Below, in pieces: positions 12,338 to 32,000 of a stretch of DNA of 32,000 nt (positions are counted from its first letter, which is position 1; every line of letters begins with the position of its first letter). Origin of the DNA: Halomicronema hongdechloris C2206 (GTDB lineage Bacteria; Cyanobacteriota; Cyanobacteriia; Phormidesmidales; Phormidesmidaceae); the NCBI RefSeq assembly GCF_002075285.3, contig NZ_CP021983.2, positions 5,545,846 to 5,577,845 on the forward strand, read 5' to 3'. The position numbers were made by a program, and so were the translations under genes. The notes under the pieces are model-generated. The model searched no databases. It worked only from the letters and a program-made list of their open reading frames with translations, and was not told where the DNA came from.

Positions 12338-14791
12338 ATGTCCCAGTCACCTTCCTCTACCCCTACACCAGGTGCTGATCCAACAGCCATTCAGTTATTT
12401 AATCGGGGGATAGCGGCCCTGCAGCGGCAAGAGTATACGGTTGCGATCGCAACCTTCACCCAACTCCAGGCCCAGTTTCCTACCCTCACCAGCTATCAGC
12501 TCAAGGCTCAAATGGGCCTAGTCAAGGCCTATGCGGCCCAGGGACAGCATCAAGATGCCATTGCCCTGTGCCAGCGCTTACGGCAGAGCCGCCATCCTAA
12601 GGTGCAAGCCTGGGCCAAACGGGTATTGCCACAATTGCTAGCAGATGCTGGGACCCGGTCTGGGGCCAGGCAGAGCAATCCCAGCGGATTTACTCCCTTA
12701 TCCCCCCAGGCGTCTGCTCAGCAGTCAACCTCTACCACTCAAGCGACGGACCTCAGTGGATTTACCCCCCTATCTGCTAACGCTGACATCAAGCAGCCAG
12801 GCGAGGGCCATAGGGAGCCTGGCACCGCCGATGGCAGTGACACTCCTCCCAGGGAGAGCGCACCGGAGACCATGGCTACCTCCCAGGAAAATCCTGCCGA
12901 AATTCCGCCAGACTCTCTTTTCCACTATCAGCGCCTGAACCAATCCAGCCCCTCGACGCCAGCAACACCGCCTACTGCTGAGACCAGCGCAGCAGCACCG
13001 GCATCTCGCTTCCCGCAGCCTGTCCGTCGTCTCTCCCCGCAAGCCCAGGCTGGAGCCCTCAACGCTGTTATCTGGCAGCTAGGGCTGATTCAAGTCGCCA
13101 CTGCGGTGGTGTGCTTCTGGCTACTCCGATGGCTGGTGCAGGGCAGTCTGCACAGCATTAACTGGGGCATCGTCAAACTCTCGATTCGCTGGCCCATCTA
13201 TGTCGCCCCCATCCAAGCCTTTTACCAAGATCACAGCCTCTCGATAGCGGTGATTATCGGGGCACTGATCTTGACGTCCCCCTGGGCTATAGATGGCATG
13301 CTGCGCTGGCGCTGGGGTCTTCGTTCTCTGCCTCCCCGTGAACTGCGAACCTATAGCCCTAAAGCCTTGCAACTGATCCAACGGGTCTGCCAACAGCGGG
13401 GATGGTTGCGGCCAGAACTGCGCCTCTTGCCCACGGATATGCCCATCAGCTTTAGCTACGGCTGGTGGCCTCGCTACACCCGTATCGTGGTCAGCCAAGG
13501 ATTACTGACCCAACTCTCAGAGGAGGACTTGACCGCCCTGTATGCCTACGAAGTCAGCCATGTATGTCACTGGGACTTACCGATTATCTCTGGCCTCTCC
13601 CTACTGTTGCTGTTATTGCATCAGGGATACTGGTCCCTAGCCCTGTGGGGCAATCGTCGGGGGTCATCTAGTCTTCGCTATCTAGCAGCCTGCGGTGCTG
13701 CGGCAGCCTATGGCCTCTACTGGCTGCTGCGTAAGGTAGGGTTACCTCTGTCGCAGCTGCGGAGTCGACGATGCGATCGCACCGCCCTCACCCTGACCCA
13801 AGATCCAGACAGCCACCAGCGCCTATTGCTATATCTGGCTGAAACCAGTACCACCGCCATCGAGCAGCAAGGATATCTGCCTCCCCTGATGGAAAGCCTT
13901 GACCTTCTCATGCCCATCAGCCCAGCCATGATCTTGCACCTCGGCAGCAGTGCCAGACTCCATCCCTGGGCTGACTTATTAACGTGGGACTGTCAAAGTC
14001 CCTATCGCCATTGGCTATCCCTCAACCAACCCCAACCTCTTTTGGGGGAACGTATCCAGACAATGCAGCAATGGGCTCAGTACCATGGCATTGCCTACGA
14101 CGCCACACTTCCCTCACCAAAATCTGCCCAAGCTGGCCAATCTCCGACAGCATGGTCCCAGCTCCTCTGGCAAGGCAGCCCCATTGTGGGCATGATCACA
14201 GGCCTTGGGATTGCCATGGGGCTTTGGTTCATCGGCGGCTTAGTCACTCCCCTGGGCTGGCCGTGGCTGAGCTGGCTTTACCAGGATAGTAGCCTCATCA
14301 AAGCCGGTCTGTTGTTGGGCCTGGGCATTGGCATCTTGTTGCGGATTAACCGCACATTCCCCGACATCATCCCCAGTCAAGCCCTGCACAGTCCGGCTCT
14401 CCCCAGCCTATTACAATCACCTAGCTGCCTTCCCCTCGATAGCCAACCCATCTATTGGCAGGGAACCGTGCTAGGAGCCCCAGGTATTGCCAGCTGGCTA
14501 GGGCAAAATTTACTGTTTAAGACCCAGACAGGGTTAATGCATCTCCATGTTTTGTCTACCCTAGGCCCTATTGGTAATCTCCTCATACCGCAGACGCGAC
14601 CTGGAGATTTCGTCGGCCACACCCTGACCATCAGCGGTTGGTTTCGCCGTGGCGCCACCGCTCGGATCGATTTAGATACTGTGCAAGCCAACAGAAAACG
14701 CCAACACATCAGCAATCCCCCCCTCTGGTCTACGTTACTCAGCCTAGTTTTTTGTAGCTGGGGGCTCTTGATACTGTACACAGGTCAATAA
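12338..14791 (+). CDS. Membrane protein with N-terminal TPR-like region, S/T/P-rich linker and M48 (HtpX/Ste24)-like peptidase core
   Basis: 817 aa. The N-terminus has TPR-like helices, followed by low-complexity S/T/P sequence of about 150 aa and multiple TM spans. The block LSEEDLTALYAYEVSHVCHWD aligns with the M48 consensus around HEXXH, but Tyr replaces the first His. Confidence 0.6.
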   Translation: MSQSPSSTPTPGADPTAIQLFNRGIAALQRQEYTVAIATFTQLQAQFPTLTSYQLKAQMGLVKAYAAQGQHQDAIALCQRLRQSRHPKVQAWAKRVLPQLLADAGTRSGARQSNPSGFTPLSPQASAQQSTSTTQATDLSGFTPLSANADIKQPGEGHREPGTADGSDTPPRESAPETMATSQENPAEIPPDSLFHYQRLNQSSPSTPATPPTAETSAAAPASRFPQPVRRLSPQAQAGALNAVIWQLGLIQVATAVVCFWLLRWLVQGSLHSINWGIVKLSIRWPIYVAPIQAFYQDHSLSIAVIIGALILTSPWAIDGMLRWRWGLRSLPPRELRTYSPKALQLIQRVCQQRGWLRPELRLLPTDMPISFSYGWWPRYTRIVVSQGLLTQLSEEDLTALYAYEVSHVCHWDLPIISGLSLLLLLLHQGYWSLALWGNRRGSSSLRYLAACGAAAAYGLYWLLRKVGLPLSQLRSRRCDRTALTLTQDPDSHQRLLLYLAETSTTAIEQQGYLPPLMESLDLLMPISPAMILHLGSSARLHPWADLLTWDCQSPYRHWLSLNQPQPLLGERIQTMQQWAQYHGIAYDATLPSPKSAQAGQSPTAWSQLLWQGSPIVGMITGLGIAMGLWFIGGLVTPLGWPWLSWLYQDSSLIKAGLLLGLGIGILLRINRTFPDIIPSQALHSPALPSLLQSPSCLPLDSQPIYWQGTVLGAPGIASWLGQNLLFKTQTGLMHLHVLSTLGPIGNLLIPQTRPGDFVGHTLTISGWFRRGATARIDLDTVQANRKRQHISNPPLWSTLLSLVFCSWGLLILYTGQ

Positions 14792-21218: not shown

Positions 21219-24149
21219 CTAGACAGTCGCCACTGCCTCAGGGCCAGGCAGTTGAGTCAGCACCAGATCGTTGTAGTCGAAGTCACTCCAGTCTTCGAAT
21301 CCCCAGCTGTTGCCACTGTGGTCCCAGCGTCCCTGGCTTTGCAGGCTGTCTGCAAGGGTCACCAGCTTGTTGCTGTTCCCCCGTGTCAGCATGGCGGGAG
21401 CCAGATACTGGCCATTGAGGGTATCAAGATCCAGTTCGAAGATCTCCGAGGCGCCATCGTCGACTCCCCATTGCACATCTAACAGACGTTCCCGCACCGC
21501 ATCGTCGTAGCCAGCCTGACCTGGCAGCACGGTTTGGCCATTGACCTCAATGCCGCCTTGGCTATCGGTGAGATAGAAGCTGAGCAGATTGTCGCTGGCA
21601 GATTCTCGGGTCAGTTCAAAGCTGAGGCTAGATTGGCCGGTGATATCGATTAGGGTATCCAGAGGCGCTTGGGGCTGCACAGGGGACTCTACCAACAGCT
21701 GATTGGCAGGCAGCACTGCTGGCTGGTTGGAGACGGCTGCCCCACCACGGCCTTGACTCACCGGTAGTGACGAGTTGATCAGATCGAGGTTATCGATCAG
21801 CAGGGCTGAGTTCACTGAGGTATCGCCGACATCGGCCACGCCAATGGCCACGTTGTAGACACCAGTCTGAGTAAACTCATAGGTGAAGGCATCGTACCCG
21901 GTCTGATTAGCGTAGTCAGCTCCGCCGAAGCTGACGACATCGCTGCCGGTATCGGCGAGTTCACCACCAAACTGGGAATCGATGACAACGAAGCCAAAAT
22001 CGTTGAAAGAGGGGCTAGGGGTGGCTTCGTTGGTCAGGAAGCTCCAATCGAAGCTGAGGGTATCGCCGGCATCGGCTTGGAAGGAGAACACTTCAATGGC
22101 TGAGCCCTCTTGGACATCACCATTGCCCATGGCATCCAGCGCCCCAGCCTGTAACCCCAAGAAAGATTCTAGGGCGGCTTCTGGAGCAGCTCCATCGGCG
22201 GTGGTCACGAGGGCTTGATATTGTCCCTCGGTGGGATTGGCCCCAAAGCTGTTAGTAACCACCGAGGTATCGCCGAGGCTGCGCCAACCGGTGAGGTTAC
22301 CGACTTCAAAGCCCCAGTTGTTCAGGGACTGACTGTCTAGCAGGGCAAAATTATCCACCAGGAGACCGGAGTTGACGGATGAATCGCCTTCGTCGACGAC
22401 GCCGAGGCCGATGTCGTAGGTGCCATCCTGGGCAAAGATGTAGTTGAAGGTGCCGTAGCCAGTTTGGTTACTGAAGCCACTGCCGCCGAAGCTGACGAAG
22501 TCGGCTTGGGTATCGGCCAGTTCGCCGCTGAAGGCATCGCTGATGGTGAAGAAGCCGAAGTCGTTAAAGGAGCTAGGAGTTAGTTCGTTGGTGAGGAAGT
22601 TCCAGTCGAAGCTGAGCAGGTCACCCGCCTGGACGGTGATGGCAGCCAGCTTCAGGGCAGACCCGGTGGTGACATTGCCATTGCCGAACACATCTAGGCT
22701 GCCGGGATTTAATCCCAGAAAACTTTCCAGGCTGGCCTCATCGACAGAGCCACTGCCATTGGTGAGCAAGGCCTGGTAGGTGCCATCGGTAGGACCCACT
22801 CCGATGGTGTCGGTCTCGATGGTGGTCGCGCCCAGGGTGGACCAGCCGGTAAAGTCGCCGAATTCGAAGCTGAGGTTGTCACTGGGGGTAGTGCCAGGAT
22901 TCAGGGCGTTGAAGGCATTGAGCCGGCCGCCAGTTACGGTTTTGCCGGTTAAAGCCGCCACCGGATCGACGCCGTCGAGGATGGCTTGTTTGACCTCCTG
23001 GAAGGAGAGGCTGGGATCTTGACTGAGCACCTGGGCGGCTACTCCGGCTACATGGGGCGTGGCCATGGAGGTGCCGCTGAAGCTGGCATAGCCACCAGGA
23101 ATGGTGCTTAAGATGTCGACCCCGGGGGCAGCCAGATCCACAGAGGTGGCGCCGTAGTTGGAAAAGCTACCGAGTTGATCGGTGTGGTCGGTGGCGGCGA
23201 CGGCAATGATATTGTCCAGGTCGTAGTTGGAGGGATAGTGGGGAATTAGGTCATTGTTATCGCCAATGCCGTCGAGGCCACCATTGCCGGCGGCGGCGAT
23301 GAAGAGCTGATCGGCAGCTCCGGCGGCTGCGATCGCATCGTAGATGGCCTGGCTAGGGGAACTACCGCCCCAGCTGTTGTTGGTCAGATCGGCCCCCATT
23401 AGGGTGGCGTATTCGATGGCCTGGGTGATGGCGAAGGTGGTGGTGGTACCGGCGGCATCGAAGATTTTTAGGGCCATCAACTGGGCATCAGGAGCGACCC
23501 CGGCAACGCCGATGCCATTATTGGTTTCGGCAGCAATGGTGCCGGCCACATGGGTGCCATGGCTATTGTCATCTATGGGATCAGAATCATTGTTGATGAA
23601 GTCATAGCCGTAGACATCATCGACATAGCCATTGCCATCGTCATCGAGGCCATTACCGGCGATCTCCCCGGCGTTGATCCACATGTTGTCGTTGAGATCG
23701 GGGTGGGTATAGTCAATGCCACTATCAATGACGCCGACCACCACAGTGTTGCCAGTGCTCTGCTGCCAGGCCTCGGGGGCATCGATATCGACATCGGGGA
23801 TGCCACCGGTTTGACCGGTGTTATGCAGGCCCCACTGGTCTGACAGGTCGGGATCATTGGGCAGCGGTGGTGTGGTTGGCGTATTTGTCGGTCCCCCTTG
23901 CAGGGTATAGATGGCGTTGGGTTCGATGTACTCCACCAGAGGGTGATCCTGGTAGGCGGCGATGGCTTCTGCTGTGGTCATGCCATCGATCTGCCACAGT
24001 TGCAGCGCATCGCCAGAGGCGGTGGCTAAGACCGAAGCCTGTAAGCCGTTCTGAAGTTGGTCAGCACCGGCCAGGCTAGCGCCTGACTTAAACTTGATGA
24101 TGACTTCACCGGCTTTGATTGGGTTAGACGAGCGGGCGGAGAAATTCAT
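21219..24149 (-). CDS. S8 (subtilisin) family serine peptidase with propeptide, duplicated ~180-aa module and DUF4114-like C-terminus
   Basis: 976 aa. The catalytic triad contexts are VGVIDSGID (Asp142), HGTHVAG (His197) and GTSMATPHVAG (Ser361). There are two tandem homologous modules (aa ~425-604 and ~609-790). The C-terminal WGFEDWSDFDYNDLVL resembles DUF4114. Confidence 0.9.
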   Translation of the reverse strand: MNFSARSSNPIKAGEVIIKFKSGASLAGADQLQNGLQASVLATASGDALQLWQIDGMTTAEAIAAYQDHPLVEYIEPNAIYTLQGGPTNTPTTPPLPNDPDLSDQWGLHNTGQTGGIPDVDIDAPEAWQQSTGNTVVVGVIDSGIDYTHPDLNDNMWINAGEIAGNGLDDDGNGYVDDVYGYDFINNDSDPIDDNSHGTHVAGTIAAETNNGIGVAGVAPDAQLMALKIFDAAGTTTTFAITQAIEYATLMGADLTNNSWGGSSPSQAIYDAIAAAGAADQLFIAAAGNGGLDGIGDNNDLIPHYPSNYDLDNIIAVAATDHTDQLGSFSNYGATSVDLAAPGVDILSTIPGGYASFSGTSMATPHVAGVAAQVLSQDPSLSFQEVKQAILDGVDPVAALTGKTVTGGRLNAFNALNPGTTPSDNLSFEFGDFTGWSTLGATTIETDTIGVGPTDGTYQALLTNGSGSVDEASLESFLGLNPGSLDVFGNGNVTTGSALKLAAITVQAGDLLSFDWNFLTNELTPSSFNDFGFFTISDAFSGELADTQADFVSFGGSGFSNQTGYGTFNYIFAQDGTYDIGLGVVDEGDSSVNSGLLVDNFALLDSQSLNNWGFEVGNLTGWRSLGDTSVVTNSFGANPTEGQYQALVTTADGAAPEAALESFLGLQAGALDAMGNGDVQEGSAIEVFSFQADAGDTLSFDWSFLTNEATPSPSFNDFGFVVIDSQFGGELADTGSDVVSFGGADYANQTGYDAFTYEFTQTGVYNVAIGVADVGDTSVNSALLIDNLDLINSSLPVSQGRGGAAVSNQPAVLPANQLLVESPVQPQAPLDTLIDITGQSSLSFELTRESASDNLLSFYLTDSQGGIEVNGQTVLPGQAGYDDAVRERLLDVQWGVDDGASEIFELDLDTLNGQYLAPAMLTRGNSNKLVTLADSLQSQGRWDHSGNSWGFEDWSDFDYNDLVLTQLPGPEAVATV

Positions 24150-24830: not shown

Positions 24831-24863
24831 CCGATGCGACGCGATCCACAACGGCTGATCGAC
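24831..24863. repeat. 33-nt direct repeat, copy 2
   Basis: CCGATGCGACGCGATCCACAACGGCTGATCGAC, lying 100 nt beyond the stop of the minus-strand 156-aa gene. Confidence 0.85.
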
Positions 24864-24962
24864 GCAGGCCGACTTTTGTATAGCAGCGGTTTACTCAAAG
24901 AGAAGCCACTTCGCCCCGCCTTAACGTTTTGTCTTGCCCGCTTCATGGGCTCACCATTGAGT

Positions 24963-25433
24963 CTAGAGCCGTTCCGCCAGATAAGCCCGAAACCCAGCCA
25001 TTTTGCCATTGTCGTTCCAGCGCTCCCCAAAACGCTTGAGGGTCTCAATCAGATGGGGCTCTCCGTCCTGGAGGGCAGGGTCAAAACCCAGCAGCTCTCT
25101 TTGGGGAGTCAGGCTGCTCCAATCCTCGACCTCGGGTTGCCACCACAAGACTCGACAGATGCGATGGTACCAGAGGCCTTCTTCATAGGCTTCACAGTCC
25201 AGAATTTCGACCAGGTGAGTGAGTCTGCCGTTTTGGATCAGGGCCACCTGATCTGCCGCTTCAAGTTGATTCGCCTTATCGGTATGAAACCCCAGAGGAA
25301 AGACCGTGACGTAGTTATGGTCAACAGTGTGCGGCATGTCTCGGATGCGATCGCGCGTGTAGGCCCACCCACTGGGGTCATGGATGACCTTGACCCACTT
25401 CAGCTTTGAGAGGTCGATATGACTCATGTCCAT
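24963..25433 (-). CDS. Hypothetical protein, 156 aa, no family recognised
   Basis: The composition is balanced and globular-looking (Trp, Tyr and charged residues). It is preferred over the antisense ORF 24834..25409, whose translation is Leu/Pro/Ser-rich. Confidence 0.5.
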   Translation of the reverse strand: MDMSHIDLSKLKWVKVIHDPSGWAYTRDRIRDMPHTVDHNYVTVFPLGFHTDKANQLEAADQVALIQNGRLTHLVEILDCEAYEEGLWYHRICRVLWWQPEVEDWSSLTPQRELLGFDPALQDGEPHLIETLKRFGERWNDNGKMAGFRAYLAERL

Positions 25434-25500
25434 AACTCAGTAAGGGGCTGTCAGGCCGGGCAGGAAGCAAGGGCAGAGCCATTACCTGGTTGATGCTCGA

Positions 25501-25826
25501 CTAAGTATCTGCAGGCGATTCAGCGGCGGTCTCAGGGGCAGCCTCGGCGGGGGTGGCGTCGGTTGTTGTCTTCTCGGCGGAGTCAGCCGCAGGGGCTGCG
25601 GGTTGGGGGGTTGCCCGGGAAGGCTTGGGACCGCGCATCAGGGCTGGGTTAACTGGCGGTTTAGGCGTATCTCGTTCACCGCGGTTGCGATCGCGTTTGC
25701 CTTTGCCCTTACCCGTCCCCGCTGCTTCTGTTGCCGGGGGTCTTGCTGATCTCGGGACGCTGGAGACGATTCGGCGCTCTCTGCTTGTTTGGCTCGCTCA
25801 GAGCGCTTAATGGGACGGTCGACCAT
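25501..25826 (-). pseudogene. Small basic low-complexity protein gene with coding signal split over two frames
   Basis: ATG 25826 opens a 62-aa frame (MVDRPIKRSERAKQAES...) that stops at 25638. A second frame stays open from 25797 to TAG at 25501-25503. It encodes codon-like GKGKGKRDRNRGERDTPKPPVNPALMRGPKPSRATPQPAAP...ESPADT but has no start before the Met at 25644. This is consistent with a 1-nt indel near the C5/G4 runs at about 25716-25740. Confidence 0.3.
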
Positions 25827-25977
25827 GGCTAACCCTTGCTAAACACCTAGCTGATCCTAGCGTGAAGCAGTCGCCAGGCAGTGGCTACCCCACTATTGGC
25901 TGGATACGGCAGCCGACTCAATGCCCGAAGCTCAGCCCGAGTGAATAAGTCGCTGGGGCTCAGAAATAGGACTAAAC

Positions 25978-27435
25978 ATGCAGAGAGCTATCCCCATGCA
26001 GAGCCCCATGCAAAGCCCTAACCTTGGCTGCGGTTTGGCTCAATGCCAGACTAAACACAACTTCTTGCCTATTGCCGCTATGGATACCGCCAGCCAATAC
26101 TGGCATCTCATTCGGCTGACTGGGGCTGGCGATGGCCATAGCCACATGGTGCCTCAGGTCAAGACCTGGCTGCAGCCATGGTTAGCCGATGATATTAAGG
26201 ATGCCGAGACCACTCTGCAGCAGCGGCTGATCACGATCTGGCAGGCCAATCACGGCCAAGCCGACCTGGCCCAGCTGAGTCTGCGCTGCTTTATCAGTCA
26301 TCAGATTCGCGATGTCTGCCTGCAATTGGCCCAGCGCTTCGGCCCTACCCATGGCTTTAGCGCCCGGGATTTATTTCCCCTGGTATTAGACGATGACGGC
26401 CAGCTGCAGCCCAACCACCGCCCCTTCACCCTGGAGATTCTAGACACCTACGACCCGACCCAGGCCAATCTCGGCGCCTGGGCCCGGCGGCTCACCCAGC
26501 ACCATCGCGATCTGAATCAGGCCTTGCTGGAGCAGGGCCTCTATCGGGCCAGCGATTGGGCTATCCTCAACGACACCTCTGTCAAGCAGCTGCAGCGGAT
26601 TCTGCAGGACTACCACCACTGCAGTGATCACGAAATCAGCCGGGCCAGCCGGTTACTGCAGCAGTATCACCAGGTGTATCGTCGCGATCGCATCCGCAAC
26701 CGCCAGGGAAGTGCCAACACTCGCTGTCAGCCCCCCAGCCGGGAACAGTTGCAGCGCATTGAGCCGGCCATGGCGCCGAGATCATTGCTACACCGGCTCA
26801 AGACCCTGGCCAGCCAGCTGCGGGCCTATCGCATTCACGTCCGCAGTGGTCACCCCATTCCCTATAGCGATGCCGCCGTCGACTGGACCCAGGTAGCCGA
26901 CCCTAGGCAGTCCTGCCCCAATGATGACGATCAAGCTGCCTTCTTGGCCGCCTATCGCCAGGCCCTGGAGCAAGACCTGGACGCCGCCATTGCCGACAGC
27001 ATTACCACCGCCATCACCCAGCTACGGCAGCGCCGCCCGCCCAAAGATGACCCCTATGTCGAGGGCCTGTATTTATTCCACTGCCAGGGGATGGCCATGG
27101 GGCAACTGGCTCCCCGGCTGGGCCTCAGTGGTCAGGTGCAGGTGAATCGGCTGCTGCAGCTGAAACGCCTGCGGGCCGAGGTGCGTCATCGCCTGATTCC
27201 TAGCCTCTGCCAAACCGTCTACCAAGCGGCCCAACCCTATGTGTCTGCCGCCCAGCTCCAGCAGCTGAACCAGACCCTGGAGCAGCTATTGACCCAGGAG
27301 GTGGATCAGCTCCTGGACGAGGCCCGATCGGAAGCGCAAATTCCTAAAGATCGCACGGCTCAGAGTCTGTTTGCCCGTCGTCTCTGCCACGTAATTCATC
27401 GCTTTCTGTCGTCCCCTGAGACAGCCCTTGAATGA
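25978..27435 (+). CDS. Divergent sigma-70-like / HTH regulatory protein
   Basis: 485 aa (451 aa from the likelier start ATG 26080, MDTASQYWHL). LSLRCFISHQIRDVCLQLAQRFG resembles a sigma region-2-like helix. LYLFHCQGMAMGQLAPRLGLSGQVQVNRLLQLKRLRAEVRHRL resembles a region-4 helix-turn-helix. The stop overlaps the next start (ATGA). Confidence 0.5.
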   Translation: MQRAIPMQSPMQSPNLGCGLAQCQTKHNFLPIAAMDTASQYWHLIRLTGAGDGHSHMVPQVKTWLQPWLADDIKDAETTLQQRLITIWQANHGQADLAQLSLRCFISHQIRDVCLQLAQRFGPTHGFSARDLFPLVLDDDGQLQPNHRPFTLEILDTYDPTQANLGAWARRLTQHHRDLNQALLEQGLYRASDWAILNDTSVKQLQRILQDYHHCSDHEISRASRLLQQYHQVYRRDRIRNRQGSANTRCQPPSREQLQRIEPAMAPRSLLHRLKTLASQLRAYRIHVRSGHPIPYSDAAVDWTQVADPRQSCPNDDDQAAFLAAYRQALEQDLDAAIADSITTAITQLRQRRPPKDDPYVEGLYLFHCQGMAMGQLAPRLGLSGQVQVNRLLQLKRLRAEVRHRLIPSLCQTVYQAAQPYVSAAQLQQLNQTLEQLLTQEVDQLLDEARSEAQIPKDRTAQSLFARRLCHVIHRFLSSPETALE

Positions 27436-28586
27436 GTCGTTCTTCCCACACCGTCACCATGATGATTTCTATGAGCACTCCCGTGTCGCCCCAGGATTTT
27501 GACATTGCCCCTTGGCGCCCTAACACTGTGACCCTGCCAGAGACAGCAGTGCAGTGGGCCCTGCAGACATGTCAACCGATCCCAGATCCGGCCCAACAAT
27601 GGCAGATATTTCTACAAGCGCTGGCGCTACAGGGGTTTCAGCAGTGGTTAGCTGCTGGCACCTTAGAGTTGCCCCTGAGTGATGCTGGCCAACAGCAGCT
27701 GGAGGCAGGAATGACGACTTATCAGGTGGAGGGGTTCCGCCTCTGCCTGGTGGCCCAGGGTAGCCTCAGCGATGACCGGGTGACCCTGCCAGCAGCCAGC
27801 CTAGCGGCGACCAACGCCCATGCCCATTTCTGGGTTTTGCTGGAGGTGCAGGAAGAGGTCAACCAGGTGACGGTGCTGGGCAGTCTGCGTTGCGATCGCA
27901 TCACCGCGGCCCAACCCCTGCGGCCCAACGCCGAGGGCAGCTACACCGTGCCCATCGCCGCCTTCGACACCGCCCCCGAAGAGTTATTGCTGTACCTGAG
28001 CTGTTTGGACCCGGCCCAGTTGGCCGCCCCCAGCCTGGTTCGTCCCGCCGCCGAGGATATTCACCCCGGCGCCACCGACCGGCCCATCAATGTGGGCCGC
28101 TGGCTACAAGACCAGCTAGACGCCATGGCCGCCAGTCTGGCCTGGACCCTGCTGCCGCCCCTGGTGCCCACCACCGCTGGCCTGCGCAGCCCCAGCGAAA
28201 CCTTGACGGCGATGCTGGAGGAGCTGGAACCGACCCTGCCGGTGCCGGAGACGGCCGAGGGGCCTACACCGGATTTGCAGCGCTTTGGCTTGCCCTTTCG
28301 GCTCTATGCCCTCACCTGGACCCTGTTTGAATCGGCAACCCCGGAATGGTCTCTCCTGTTGCTCCTGGGTCCGGTCGACGGCCGTCAGCTGCCTGCCGGG
28401 ATCCGGCTGATGCTGCAGGATCAGCACACCATCCTGGTGGATCAGACCCTGAGCACCGACGCCGACGCCACCTATCTCTACGGCCAGGTCATCGGCACCT
28501 GGGAGGAAGAGTTCATGGCCACGGTGCAGTTACCCAGTGGCTCTACCCTCACCTTCCCCCCCTTTGTGTTTAACCCTGCCCCCTAG
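27432..28586 (+). CDS. DUF1822 family protein
   Basis: 384 aa. The N-terminal pattern (AVQWALQTC...QQWQIFLQALALQGFQQWLAAG) and the central block (AHFWVLLEVQEEVNQVTVLGSLRCDRI) fit my memory of cyanobacterial DUF1822. It sits in its usual neighbourhood beside sigma-like and CHAT genes. Confidence 0.55.
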   Translation: MSRSSHTVTMMISMSTPVSPQDFDIAPWRPNTVTLPETAVQWALQTCQPIPDPAQQWQIFLQALALQGFQQWLAAGTLELPLSDAGQQQLEAGMTTYQVEGFRLCLVAQGSLSDDRVTLPAASLAATNAHAHFWVLLEVQEEVNQVTVLGSLRCDRITAAQPLRPNAEGSYTVPIAAFDTAPEELLLYLSCLDPAQLAAPSLVRPAAEDIHPGATDRPINVGRWLQDQLDAMAASLAWTLLPPLVPTTAGLRSPSETLTAMLEELEPTLPVPETAEGPTPDLQRFGLPFRLYALTWTLFESATPEWSLLLLLGPVDGRQLPAGIRLMLQDQHTILVDQTLSTDADATYLYGQVIGTWEEEFMATVQLPSGSTLTFPPFVFNPAP

Positions 28587-28594
28587 AGGCCGCC

Positions 28595-30976
28595 ATGATC
28601 TATCGACTCACCGTTCACAAGATTGACCACAGCTGCCTGTTCGAACTGACTTGGGGCCAAAGCCAGCGGCTGACCGCCAGCCTGCCCTATCCCCCGGCCT
28701 TGACCACCCTCTACGGCGCCTGGCAGCGGGCCTATGTGACCTACTACCAACAAGGACTGCGGGGCCGGCCCGGGGCCGTGGGGCAGGTCTCGGCGATGGC
28801 CAAGCTGGACTGGCACAGCCAGGTGGTGCAGGCAGAAGCCCGCCTCCTCTCGGAGTTCCATCGCTGGCTGCGCCACGAGGCCCTCTTCGATCTGCGGGCC
28901 GAGTTAATGCGGCGGTCGCCGTCCGCAGCCGGTACTGCCGAGACGCGAGAACTATTTCTAGCCTGTTCTCCCCTGGAGCTGGCTCGTCTGCCCTGGGAGA
29001 CCTGGGAAGTGGGGGCCGATCTGGGCCAACCGGGTCAGATTCAAATCGTGCGCTCCCCCGCCACCATCCGTTCGCCCACCGCTGATCAGCAGCCGATACG
29101 CCGGGGCAAACCTCGGGTGCTAGCCATCTTAGGCGATGAGACGGGGCTCGACTTCGCCGGCGATCGCACCGCCCTCAAGGCCCAAAAGCAGCAGCTAGAG
29201 GTGCACTATCTGGGCTGGCAACCCCAAGAAGATGCGACCGCCCTGAAGCAGCGCATCTGCCAGACCCTGGCCGACTCCCGAGGCTGGGATGTGTTGTTAT
29301 TTGCCGGCCACAGCAACGAGGAGCAGCTGCTGGCCGGGCAGATCGCCATTGCCCCCCATACGTTTATCTCGGTCAAGGAACTGGCCCCCTATCTGCAGCA
29401 GGCCCAACGGCGGGGGTTGCGGTTTGCCCTGTTTAATTCCTGCAATGGCCTGGATATCGCCAATGGCTTGATCAGCCTGGGCCTGAGCCAGGTGGCGATC
29501 ATGCGGGAGCCGATCCATAACCAGGTGGCCCACAGCTTTCTGCTGCAGTTTCTGCAGCGGCTAGCCAACCACGAGGACGCCCAGGCGGCTCTGATGGGGG
29601 CCTGTCAGGATCTAAAGCTGGAAAAACAACTCACCTATCCCTCGGCCTATTTGGTCCCTTCCCTGTTTCGCCACCCCGATTCGCGGCCCTACCGGATCCC
29701 GCAGCGGGGCTGGTGGCGGCGCTGGCGACCCCGCCGCCGAGAAATGCTGGGGGTTGCGGCCCTGGCTCTGATCTCCCTGTTGCCGCCGGTGCAAGACTGG
29801 TTAATGAATCAACGGGTGCGATCGCAAGCCATCTATCGCCAGCTCACCGGTCAGATCGCGCCCCAGTCCAGTCCTCCCATCATGCTGGTGCAGATCGACG
29901 ACCGCACCCTGCAGGAATGGCGCATCGCCGAACCCCTGCCCATCGACCGCACCCTGCTGGCAGCGATCGTCACCCAGCTCAACCAACTGCAGGCACCGGT
30001 GGTGGGGATTGACTACCTGCTGGATCGGCCCCTGGCCGCAGATGCCCAGTTGCGACGCGCCCTCACCCAGGGAATTATCCAGGGAGACCGCTGGTTTGTG
30101 TTTGGGGCCAAGCGCAACCATCGGGGGGAGTGGCTGACGGTGCATGCCGATGTGGCCTCGCTGAACTGGAGCCTGGAGGGCGACATCTGGGTGCCCTGGT
30201 GGCACATTCGCCCCCGGGGCTGGTCGGATCGGCCCCGGCCCTTTAGCTACCAACTGGCCATGGCCTACCACCTCAGCCAAACCCCAGCCGGCCCCGTACC
30301 CGACCTGGCCAGCCGGCAATCCCTCCAGACCTTGATTCAGGACCACTGGCAGGCCACCCAGCAGCGGCCCCCCTTATCACCGCGATCCCGTTTACACCCC
30401 ATCACCAATGGCTCTTACTGGCTCTATCAACGCTGGTTGCAGCCCCTGTTAGATTTCTCCATGCCGCCCCGGCAGGTGTATACCGCCGTGCCCGCCTGGC
30501 AACTGCTGCAGGCCCCCGAGCAGGTAATGGCTACCCTGGGACTCGACTCCTTGGCCGATCGGGTGGTGATCGTGGCCGCCGGGGGCTACGACGAGGCCGG
30601 CTCTGCCGCCGGTGGTGGGGACAACTGGCCGCCGCCGCCGGCGATGGCTTACTGGCGGGATTCTGCGACCACCGGCCTCACGGGGGGCGAGGCCCATGCC
30701 TACATGGCCCATCACTTCTTGACCGGCCACCTGGTGGTGCCCCTACCCGATCTCTGGTTGGTGTTGGTGGCCGCCTTGGTGGGCAAGGCCCTGACGATGG
30801 CCGCTGCCCGCTGGCCCGACCCCCTGCGCTGGCGGTTGATCTTAGGCCTGGCCACGGCCGGCTATGGTCTGCTGACCCTGCAGCTCTACATCGGCGGCGC
30901 CCTACTGCCTACCGTGGCTGCTGCCCGCGGCAACGGTGTGGTTCTATCTCTGGCCCTATTGGAGGATTCACCATGA
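28595..30976 (+). CDS. CHAT (caspase-fold protease) - TM - CHASE2 sensor fusion protein
   Basis: 793 aa. The CHAT dyad contexts are WDVLLFAGHSNE (His239, nt 29309-29311) and LRFALFNSCNGLDIA (Cys283, nt 29441-29443). A TM span lies at aa ~384-399. The CHASE2-like region includes IMLVQIDDRTLQEW, PIDRTLLAAIVTQLNQLQAPVVGIDYLLDRP, VVIVAAGGYDEAG and TGGEAHAYMAHHFLTG. Hydrophobic spans follow at aa ~719-790. There is no C-terminal output domain. Confidence 0.8.
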   Translation: MIYRLTVHKIDHSCLFELTWGQSQRLTASLPYPPALTTLYGAWQRAYVTYYQQGLRGRPGAVGQVSAMAKLDWHSQVVQAEARLLSEFHRWLRHEALFDLRAELMRRSPSAAGTAETRELFLACSPLELARLPWETWEVGADLGQPGQIQIVRSPATIRSPTADQQPIRRGKPRVLAILGDETGLDFAGDRTALKAQKQQLEVHYLGWQPQEDATALKQRICQTLADSRGWDVLLFAGHSNEEQLLAGQIAIAPHTFISVKELAPYLQQAQRRGLRFALFNSCNGLDIANGLISLGLSQVAIMREPIHNQVAHSFLLQFLQRLANHEDAQAALMGACQDLKLEKQLTYPSAYLVPSLFRHPDSRPYRIPQRGWWRRWRPRRREMLGVAALALISLLPPVQDWLMNQRVRSQAIYRQLTGQIAPQSSPPIMLVQIDDRTLQEWRIAEPLPIDRTLLAAIVTQLNQLQAPVVGIDYLLDRPLAADAQLRRALTQGIIQGDRWFVFGAKRNHRGEWLTVHADVASLNWSLEGDIWVPWWHIRPRGWSDRPRPFSYQLAMAYHLSQTPAGPVPDLASRQSLQTLIQDHWQATQQRPPLSPRSRLHPITNGSYWLYQRWLQPLLDFSMPPRQVYTAVPAWQLLQAPEQVMATLGLDSLADRVVIVAAGGYDEAGSAAGGGDNWPPPPAMAYWRDSATTGLTGGEAHAYMAHHFLTGHLVVPLPDLWLVLVAALVGKALTMAAARWPDPLRWRLILGLATAGYGLLTLQLYIGGALLPTVAAARGNGVVLSLALLEDSP

Positions 30977-31869
30977 CAAGGCTTAATCGATATCTGCTGA
31001 CCCTGGCGGCCCTGCTGGGGATGACCATCGGCAGTGGCGGCCTGGCCCTGGCTGGCCAAGCTCAAGAGCTGGTCTCACCCACGGGCTGGCGAGAGATCTT
31101 CCGCTTCCTGCGGGAGGAGGCCGAGGACCGCCGGAATGGCCGCAATGGTGGCCCCAGGCCGGTGGGACTCTGCCTCCTCACCCCTGGCGCTGAGGAAGTG
31201 GTCTGGCATCGCACACCGCGCTTGCTCTGGCAGGGAGACTACACGGTAGGGGTGCGACGGACCGGCCAGGATCAGGTGCAGTGGCCAGAGAGCACTACCT
31301 CCCTGCCGGCAGGAATACACGCCGCCGACTATGGGGTCACCCCATTACCCTCAGGCCAATATGACTGGGTCCTCTACATCAACGCACAGGATACGGCAAA
31401 CCCCACCCTGTGGTACCCCTTTACGGTGATGGCCACCGGGGAACAACGCGATCGCATCACCACTCACTTGGCCGTCTTGCAAGCCCGGTTGACCCACGAG
31501 GGGGCCAGTGTGGAGGCCATTGCCCAGGCCCGGGCCGACTACTTCCTGGACCATGACCTACCCGCCGATGCCCTGCAGGAGGTGTTCGCCGTCAGCAACC
31601 CCTCCGAGGAGCTGCTGGCGATGCAAGAGACCCTGGTACAGGAATATGCGGTAACGGATAATAAGGCAGGTCCAGCGGCGTCAGCCCCATGGGGAGCATG
31701 TAGGATGGGCATTGCCAAAACTAAGCCGGGCATCTTGGCCAAAGCCTTTGAGGCAATGCCCATCAGCAACTCTGGTAATAGATTGGGAGGTTTTATGATG
31801 AAACCGACTTCATCTCCAGGTCTTCGAGTTCTGCACTCAAGGGGCAGACGTGGTATGGCTCCAGGCTGA
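30973..31869 (+). CDS. Secreted DUF928 family protein (3' boundary uncertain)
   Basis: 298-aa ORF whose ATG overlaps the upstream stop (ATGA), with GGAGGA 7 nt upstream. A signal peptide is present (MTRLNRYLLTLAALLGMTIGSGGLALA/GQ). The DUF928-like layout includes GLCLLTPG, TPRLLWQG, LPSGQYDW, a helical tail and ADYFLDHDLPADAL. The last ~80 codons look non-domain and overlap minus-strand toxin-antitoxin remnants. Confidence 0.55.
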   Translation: MTRLNRYLLTLAALLGMTIGSGGLALAGQAQELVSPTGWREIFRFLREEAEDRRNGRNGGPRPVGLCLLTPGAEEVVWHRTPRLLWQGDYTVGVRRTGQDQVQWPESTTSLPAGIHAADYGVTPLPSGQYDWVLYINAQDTANPTLWYPFTVMATGEQRDRITTHLAVLQARLTHEGASVEAIAQARADYFLDHDLPADALQEVFAVSNPSEELLAMQETLVQEYAVTDNKAGPAASAPWGACRMGIAKTKPGILAKAFEAMPISNSGNRLGGFMMKPTSSPGLRVLHSRGRRGMAPG

Positions 31870-32000
31870 GCAAAAATTCAACCCGCGACATCCCAGCTAA
31901 CTCTGCGGCCCGCCCAGAAGACAACCGCCCCCAGTTCGTACAGTTTGACCGCTGCCAGCACGGGCAGTTCGCGGGCGAATCCTGCAGCGTCGGTCTTTTC
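31793..32000 (-). pseudogene. UPF0175-family antitoxin, frame-disrupted, 5' end beyond the window
   Basis: One minus-strand frame gives ...ELPVLAAVKLYELGAV. It continues one base out of frame as SSGRAAELAGMSRVEFLLSLEPYHVCPLSAELEDLEMKSVSS, ending at TAA (31793-31795). Joined, these match the UPF0175 consensus (KLYE.G.LS.G.AAELAGMSR.EF), with the break near GGGGGCGGTTG at about 31922-31932. Confidence 0.45.

Follow-up and report, generated by a model that had tools for sequence, protein, structure and literature searches.

A CHAT-CHASE2 protein in a four-gene cassette of the cyanobacterium Halomicronema hongdechloris, a probable membrane sensor-protease

A stretch of 32,000 nt of DNA from Halomicronema hongdechloris C2206 (contig NZ_CP021983.2, positions 5,545,846 to 5,577,845; referred to here, at its full length, as the window) contains an open reading frame (ORF) at 28595..30976 of the + strand that encodes a CHAT-CHASE2 protein. 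The ORF starts with ATG and encodes 793 aa, and it is genuine according to the ORF listing of the window. We consider it fairly probable that this protein is a cyanobacterial member of the EACC2-caspase(CHAT)-CHASE2 group that works as a four-span inner-membrane sensor-protease within a four-gene cassette, in which signal-gated cytoplasmic proteolysis would control a sigma-like factor. The proposal is built directly on the identities of the domains, an invariant His-Cys dyad, the layout of the membrane spans and the charge bias around them, the lack of any other output domain and a conserved gene order. The CHAT-CHASE2 family is already described computationally, and the interpretation given here matches published proposals and adds none to them. 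The novelty implied by an initial annotation of this DNA is therefore withdrawn, since the topology argument (PMC3501461), the model of autocatalysis (PMC7475262) and the EACC2+caspase+CHASE2 architecture (PMC8195603) had been published. For the window, the value of the analysis is mainly corrective: the architecture is ordinary, the end of the ORF is frameshifted, and the meaningful unit is the cassette and not the single gene. What is added here is a census of the cassette, a near-constant and translationally coupled DUF928-like partner, the weak support found for the sigma identity, and the frameshifts of the window copy. The initial annotation had read the sequence accurately but had overlooked both the operon context and the 3' frameshift.

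Domains, Predicted Structure and Topology

The features of the CHAT-CHASE2 gene are the following:

28595..28909 (aa 1-105), + strand: N-terminal alpha+beta domain, EACC2-like (AlphaFold2 model, family conservation)
28883..29629 (Pfam aa 97-345), + strand: CHAT caspase-fold protease domain (Pfam, invariant dyad, AlphaFold2 model, Foldseek)
29705..29794, + strand: basic juxtamembrane stretch RGWWRRWRPRRRE (aa 371-383) and first transmembrane span, TM1 (aa 384-400) (hydropathy, charge)
29789..30778 (aa 399-728), + strand: CHASE2 domain, predicted periplasmic (Pfam, AlphaFold2, flanking one plus three spans)
30731..30986, + strand: three C-terminal spans and short basic tail, including a 1-nt insertion at 30907-30909 (hydropathy, AlphaFold2, alignment with locus L083)

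Only two domains are recognized by Pfam in the 793-aa protein, CHAT and CHASE2, both above the curated thresholds. The CHAT match (PF12770) covers aa 97-345 and profile positions 12-271 of 289 at 31.5 bits (cut-off 24; orthologues score 23.6-29.7 bits), and the CHASE2 match (PF05226) covers aa 399-728 at 70.7 bits (cut-off 26.3, E 1.9e-19). A scan of the four cassette proteins against NCBIfam gave no match. The dyad consists of His239, the His of the motif FAGHS (codon 29309-29311), and Cys283, the Cys of FNSC (codon 29441-29443). In an alignment of 32 diverse homologues (45-88% identity) both residues are invariant, together with about 90 other positions, and the dyad can thus be regarded as intact, as the initial annotation had stated.

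An AlphaFold2 model of the protein, obtained from a 32-sequence alignment, has a mean predicted local distance difference test score (pLDDT) of 78.5. It contains an alpha/beta core of the caspase type at aa 118-345, with a low-confidence linker at aa 106-117, a long helix that runs via TM1 into CHASE2, and three terminal helices. Within the core, beta-strands 233-236 and 277-280 directly precede H239 and C283, respectively, in a caspase-like arrangement. When the model was compared with the PDB by Foldseek, the best match was SAVED-CHAT (8tl0, E 6e-9), followed by separase(s), Csx29/Craspase (7zoq, 8eex, 8eey, 7xsq) and DdvA (8rot, E 9e-6); the Foldseek probability was 1.00 for SAVED-CHAT, separase, Csx29, DdvA and the animal caspases-3, -6, and -7. 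A sequence search of the PDB with the CHAT-CHASE2 profile returned chance-level matches only (alpha-haemoglobin-stabilising protein); the dyad is assigned from the family alignment and the model. From the profile match and the model, aa 97-345 is assigned as a CHAT-family domain with a caspase-like alpha/beta fold and a His-Cys dyad, and proteolysis is its predicted activity.

The initial annotation had left the N-terminal ~170 aa unassigned. This has to be revised, because the CHAT match begins at aa 97 and aa 1-105 are modeled as a compact EACC2-like domain, with strands at 2-10, 13-20, and 24-31 and helices at 34-55, 73-92, and 95-105. The pLDDT of this domain is ~90 for residues 1-40 and 80-100, and F16, L18, Y40, W43, Y47, Y51, E81, A82, E87, W91, and L92 are invariant in the 32-sequence alignment. 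The modeled domain fits the EACC2 domain of Kaur et al. (2021; PMC8195603), a putative assignment made because the architecture, the taxon and the neighbors match.

Four hydrophobic spans are found by hydropathy, both of the window protein and averaged over the family: aa 384-400 (mean family hydropathy 1.78), ~713-738 (family peak ~713-731), 743-765 (family peak ~746-762), and ~769-789. The C-terminal helices of the model lie at 720-738, 743-765, and 772-791, and the CHASE2 domain between TM1 and these helices has pLDDT values mostly of 80-97. The N-terminus (MIYRLTVHKIDH...) shows no signal peptide or hydrophobic stretch, and ~380 residues come before the first span. The motif RGWWRRW begins at aa 371, and the net charge of the family (K+R minus D+E) amounts to +3.9 over the 18 residues that lead up to TM1 and to +1.2 behind this span; the loop between TM2 and TM3 carries +2.3, and the C-terminal tails are basic. 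The earlier proposal that a basic stretch ahead of TM1 keeps CHAT in the cytoplasm is supported by these values at the level of prediction. The predicted topology is thus most likely one in which EACC2-CHAT and the C-terminus are cytoplasmic and CHASE2 is periplasmic, with one plus three spans.

The order of a protease at the N-terminus and CHASE2 at the C-terminus, with no other output domain, agrees with what had been annotated, since Pfam finds CHAT and CHASE2 only and an output domain at the C-terminus is absent from all 31 aligned orthologues. These orthologues stop typically ~6-12 residues past the last span (up to ~25 in two of them). Therefore, the ORF is not a truncated receptor, and this idea, which the initial annotation had raised itself, was rejected.

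Distribution and Known Relatives

Among the candidates scored in a protein search, at least 1,473 were homologous at E<=1e-5. Lengths of 695-859 aa (nearly all 760-860) were recorded for the best 120, all of which have CHASE2 and most of which have CHAT; wherever these proteins carry a name, it is cyanobacterial. In a scan with one genome for each species, at least 581 loci were confirmed out of at least 600 pattern matches; the 80 loci listed are almost all labeled as cyanobacteria and come from Nostocales, Oscillatoriales, Leptolyngbyales, Chroococcales, and Thermosynechococcaceae. With the N-terminal 365 aa as the query against 1.84 billion representatives, the number of clusters (50% identity) was 240 for a threshold of E<=1e-30 and rose to 1,732 for E<=1e-10, and among the top 150 clusters, nearly all of ~800 aa, alternative C-terminal architectures were not found. 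The CHAT-CHASE2 order, which had been called unusual, is indeed atypical for CHASE2 proteins in general, yet it is very common and conserved within cyanobacteria. By the number of loci in species-representative genomes, CHAT-CHASE2 is among the most widespread caspase-like proteins of these bacteria. In the canonical CHASE2 receptors (adenylate/diguanylate cyclases, histidine kinases, Ser/Thr kinases) CHASE2 is held in the same frame of one plus three spans, but the output follows the last span, whereas in the window protein the sole enzymatic domain lies ahead of TM1 and TM4 is followed by no more than a short tail. For example, CHASE2 is N-terminal to the kinase in cyanobacterial Ser/Thr kinases (PMC2176072).

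Proteins of this kind have been described computationally several times. A caspase-family protein with CHASE2 was listed in Trichodesmium by Jiang (2010; PMC2853523), and Asplund-Samuelsson (2012; PMC3501461) described a caspase-CHASE2 protein of this genus with one-plus-three membrane helices, from which a receptor outside and a protease in the cytoplasm were deduced. The metacaspase-CHASE2 of Trichodesmium erythraeum IMS101 resembles the window protein in its N-terminal caspase-family domain, its C-terminal CHASE2 and its one plus three helices, a likeness of architecture; its authors scored it as Peptidase_C14, whereas CHAT is the Pfam family matched by the window protein and by its relatives from Okeania. 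A review from 2020 (PMC7475262) drew a model in which a ligand on CHASE2 leads to autocatalysis and the start of a proteolytic cascade. More recently, the N-terminal module was named EACC2+caspase by Kaur et al. (2021; eLife, PMC8195603), who described CHASE2 with membrane helices as one of its variable C-termini, linked genes for extracytoplasmic function (ECF) sigma factors and DUF1822 proteins to it, and proposed that a stimulus activates the autopeptidase, with the sigma factor as the end point of the pathway. In the source data of that work, an EACC2+CASPASE+CHASE2+TM+TM protein of Fischerella lies beside a DUF1822-named TRADD-N+TPRs gene, and a TIR+TM+CHASE2+CHASE2+TM+TM+TM protein places another N-terminal effector on the CHASE2 frame. 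The window protein and the EACC2+caspase proteins have in common the architecture, the DUF1822 and sigma-like neighbors, the cyanobacterial distribution and the proposed activation, and nothing essential separates them; the Fischerella entry has a TM+beta_rich+TPRs gene at the position of the DUF928-like gene, and the published sigma assignment was not strongly reproduced here.

Other relatives have been found through their fold. DdvA of Myxococcus xanthus (8rot) is a membrane CHAT protein tied genetically and functionally to an ECF-type sigma factor, DdvS, and signal-induced caspase-like autoproteolysis has been proposed for it (PMC11506125). DdvA has a periplasmic CHAT after TPRs, an incomplete His-Cys site, a cytoplasmic zinc-binding anti-sigma domain, one span and no CHASE2; the window protein, on the other hand, has a predicted cytoplasmic CHAT, an intact dyad and no recognizable anti-sigma domain. 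Another example is Craspase (type III-E gRAMP/Cas7-11, the TPR-CHAT protein Csx29 and the substrate Csx30), in which a sensor-gated CHAT cuts one partner, although this complex is soluble and RNA-guided, carries an N-terminal TPR and not EACC2, and has no membrane or CHASE2 part. In the Craspase papers of 2022, Csx30 was reportedly linked to the ECF sigma factor RpoE. In SAVED-CHAT (8tl0), the best fold match, a CHAT protease is likewise joined to a ligand sensor, and the title of the entry refers to an activated filament; its sensor, unlike CHASE2, is not periplasmic. SAVED-CHAT senses cyclic oligonucleotides by means of a soluble domain.

The Four-Gene Cassette

The CHAT-CHASE2 gene is the third of a tight four-gene cassette, which consists of a sigma-like gene, a DUF1822 gene, CHAT-CHASE2 and a gene for a secreted DUF928-like protein. 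Its other genes are:

26080..27435, + strand: sigma-factor-like gene, first gene of the cassette, 451 aa when read from the conserved Met (25978 is the start of the longest ORF)
27432..28586, + strand: DUF1822 gene, 384 aa, predicted cytoplasmic, candidate adaptor or substrate (Pfam DUF1822, E 7.8e-31, 107.9 bits)
30973..31869 as read (298 aa), or to 31661 if restored (229 aa), + strand: gene for the DUF928-like secreted protein (homologue comparison)
L001:10390-11118, L002:5811-6500 and 58 more loci: DUF928-like gene in other loci (census)

In the window, the stop of the sigma-like gene overlaps the DUF1822 start by 4 nt, 8 nt separate the end of DUF1822 from CHAT-CHASE2, and the restored CHAT-CHASE2 stop (see below) overlaps the DUF928-like start by 14 nt. 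A scan of 25300-32000 for promoters and terminators found no promoter-like site, and the terminator-like sites were not above chance. The generality of this arrangement was examined by searching profiles of the three neighbors against all ORFs of 83 loci, taking as denominators the loci with at least 3 kb upstream (76) or at least 800 bp downstream (80); L083, which is cut short upstream, was left out. The sigma-like and DUF1822 genes are both upstream in 40/76 loci, and DUF1822 is directly upstream in 43/76, which include all 40 loci with the sigma-like gene. A DUF928-like gene follows immediately in 61/80 loci and overlaps the CHAT-CHASE2 stop in 55 of them, usually by 4, 8, or 14 nt, so that it is the most constant neighbor of CHAT-CHASE2. 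All four genes occur in order in 34/74 loci.

The DUF1822 protein has no membrane span (its maximum 19-aa hydropathy is 1.35), and proteins named DUF1822 by NCBI are annotated as TRADD-N+TPRs in the source data of PMC8195603. No TRADD-N gene was recognized near the cassette, apart from this possible content of DUF1822. As for the fourth gene, a signal-like hydrophobic N-terminus is present in 57/62 DUF928-like homologues and two Cys are conserved at 97%; therefore, this partner is likely periplasmic. Pfam DUF928 (PF06051) is matched at E<=0.01 by 25/40 of the downstream homologues, the window copy not being among them, and 3/4 orthologues tested individually reach the 26-bit cut-off. By these scores, the partner can best be regarded as a divergent subfamily of DUF928. 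The main text of PMC8195603 does not mention a DUF928-like gene, and in Nostoc punctiforme the genes for CHASE2 and DUF928 adjoin (Hu, 2017).

Variations of the cassette have been seen in two other loci. In a Leptolyngbyaceae metagenome-assembled genome, one ORF (L070:1514-3811) spans the sigma-like and DUF1822 sequences; it is either a possible natural fusion, in which case an interaction of both proteins would be suggested, or a read-through artefact of a contig with ~2.8x coverage. In Leptolyngbya sp. PCC 6406, a Peptidase_C14+DUF4384 gene (L001:3017-5320) is located directly upstream of the sigma-like gene, and is thus a second caspase-family protease adjoining the cassette.

Proposed Function and Its Main Rival

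The mechanism that we propose would begin with a periplasmic cue that CHASE2 perceives, probably in cooperation with the DUF928-like partner. An oligomeric or conformational change would then pass through TM1 and turn on the membrane-proximal CHAT protease, which might cut itself (e.g., within the flexible linker that joins EACC2 to CHAT) or else its DUF1822 partner. The cut would free or alter the divergent sigma-like factor, and transcription would be changed. CHAT proteases wired to the control of ECF sigma factors have precedents, by analogy, in DdvA-DdvS (PMC11506125) and Craspase-Csx30. A more detailed version, in which DUF928 and CHASE2 co-gate the protease and the cut of DUF1822 frees the sigma-like factor in a trans-envelope pathway spread across the cyanobacteria, is more speculative and must be held as doubtful.

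The conserved start of the sigma-like gene is M35 of the long ORF, and the resulting protein matches a hypothetical protein of H. hongdechloris (451 aa) at 100% identity. When its AlphaFold2 model (pLDDT 86.3) was compared with the PDB by Foldseek, 10 of the 11 best matches were sigma factors. In Pfam searches at E<=10, one of the 33 sigma-like homologues weakly matches Sigma70_r4_2 (E 0.012) and one matches Sigma70_r2 (E 0.055), other helix-turn-helix (HTH) matches being scattered over single members. The length of 451 aa far exceeds that of a typical ECF sigma factor. The model and these matches leave the sigma identity plausible but unproven. A second sigma-like paralogue of H. hongdechloris (P0366, 41% identity) has been found outside the window, and the genome therefore probably holds a second cassette.

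Several observations weigh against the proposed pathway. The sigma-like protein of the window has no Pfam or NCBIfam match, a sequence search of the PDB with the profile of its family gave chance-level matches only, and its Foldseek E-values are only 0.18-0.5. When the profile of its family was compared by hhalign with E. coli RpoE, only the sigma-4 HTH was aligned, in register but at a probability of just 1.7%. In addition, ~45% of the loci lack the sigma-like and DUF1822 genes beside CHAT-CHASE2, and the link to sigma is therefore not obligatory in cis. The window copy itself may be impaired by the frameshifts in the last span and in the DUF928-like gene, unless these are assembly errors. 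In the literature searched on these domains, an experimental study of the CHAT-CHASE2 family was not found; the topology, the activity of the protease, its substrate and its link to sigma are inferred, as is, here and in the published papers alike, the gating of proteolysis by a ligand.

The main rival to the sensor-protease pathway is a role in conflict or cell suicide, where CHASE2 would sense an attack on the envelope (phage, toxin) and CHAT would cleave many proteins or start a death cascade, a role already put forward for caspase systems of multicellular bacteria. Proteins with EACC2-caspase have been grouped with counter-invader and apoptosis-like systems with variable sensors and TRADD-N partners (PMC8195603), and in the TIR+TM+CHASE2 protein of the same source data a death-type effector occupies the same N-terminal position. 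A proteolytic cascade launched by CHASE2-linked caspase homologues is also the model of PMC7475262, the closest solved folds, SAVED-CHAT and Craspase, are defence proteases, and toxin-antitoxin genes are present just downstream in the window, L083 and L002. However, none of the 5,027 defence models of PADLOC (PADLOC-DB 2.0, E<=0.01) matches any of the four cassette proteins. Moreover, CHAT-CHASE2 is conserved from end to end (40-67% identity) and keeps its gene order in many lineages of cyanobacteria, unlike patchy and fast-changing defence islands, the surrounding genes of the window are housekeeping (rpoA, RF-1, aldolase, ALAD), and the conserved sigma-like partner suggests a transcriptional output. 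A suicide effector is thus considered unlikely.

If a periplasmic switch and sigma-like control are true, the cassette would represent a simple bacterial pathway from receptor to caspase to transcription, and a tractable model for the receptor gating of caspase-fold proteases. In the more detailed version given above, a caspase-like protease would moreover take the role that regulated intramembrane proteolysis has in activating classical ECF sigma factors.

The Frameshifted 3' End and Further Alternatives

The start of the ORF and its reading of 793 aa are genuine, as given above, but the end at 30976 is not that of the family. In the protein search, the homologues cover 97% of the query and no more, and in the 32-sequence alignment ~27 residues at the C-terminus of the window protein stay unaligned. 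By DNA alignment with locus L083 (orthologue P0001, 90% identical), one extra base, a C, has been located at 30907-30909 of the window. The C-terminal end of P0001 is ...LLLPWLLPTVTVWFYLWPDWRNPHDKT, and the +1 frame of the window at the 3' end reads ...LPWLLPAATVWFYLWPYWRIHHDKA followed by a stop. Deletion of the extra base at ~30908 restores a 796-aa protein that ends in ...LLLPWLLPAATVWFYLWPYWRIHHDKA, with a stop codon ending at 30986; this end agrees with the last membrane span of the family. The last 27 residues are thus out of frame because of the extra base, and the stop at 30976 is, by this comparison, a frameshift product. As a consequence, the earlier description of a protein that ends in hydrophobic spans holds for the three spans after CHASE2, but the last of them is in frame only when the extra base is removed.

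Two further frameshifts are found close by, which makes three single-base changes within ~1.1 kb and in three adjacent genes, CHAT-CHASE2, DUF928-like and UPF0175-like. In the DUF928-like gene a base is missing after 31642, and the ORF therefore extends to 31869, whereas the orthologous frame would end in ...LVQAICGNG and a stop at 31661. The third is a frame switch at ~31925, with an extra G, in a GGGGG run of the convergent minus-strand UPF0175-like antitoxin gene (31795-32000+). All three were recognized by comparison with close homologues or by the frame switch inside the GGGGG run. They can be either assembly errors in the H. hongdechloris genome or real decay, and an assembly error is favored here because three single-base indels occur in 1.1 kb of G+C-rich DNA (62-66% locally).

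Real decay would mean that the window copy is a non-functional paralogue that has lost its last span and the C-terminal Cys of DUF928, the function residing in a second cassette elsewhere. The insertion, the deletion and the frame switch are all compatible with this, as is the sigma-like paralogue P0366 from the same organism. In addition, no 100%-identical CHAT-CHASE2 protein exists in the protein database, whereas the neighboring sigma-like protein is present at 100%; this is consistent with a deposited genome in which the gene is annotated as a pseudogene. On the other side, the pattern of the three indels, one of them in a GGGGG run, resembles long-read assembly errors, the coding sequence is otherwise intact over 793 codons with all conserved residues present, and even the frameshifted tail finishes in a hydrophobic stretch. 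A decaying paralogue is accordingly regarded as quite improbable. Finally, a reversed topology, with CHAT in the periplasm and CHASE2 in the cytoplasm, has a counterpart in DdvA, a TPR-CHAT protein of the fold matches that works in the periplasm as part of an ECF sigma-linked membrane protein (PMC11506125), but it is hardly credible here given the long N-terminus devoid of signal peptide or hydrophobic stretch, the charge bias in favor of N-in, the canonical one plus three spans around CHASE2, as in other CHASE2 receptors, and the secretion of the co-transcribed DUF928 partner.

Other Genes Around the Cassette

Toxin-antitoxin genes (UPF0175, PIN, DUF3368) are located just downstream of the cassette in the window (~31795-32000, - strand) and in two related loci (L083:4066-4803, L002:11565-13156). 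Upstream of the cassette, a divergent gene at 21219-24149 (- strand) encodes a 976-aa S8 subtilase with a fervidolysin-type prodomain, and a 191-aa ORF with no family match lies between both (24834-25409, + strand). At a greater distance, the window encodes an 817-aa protein with N-terminal TPRs and Peptidase_M48 (12338-14791, + strand).

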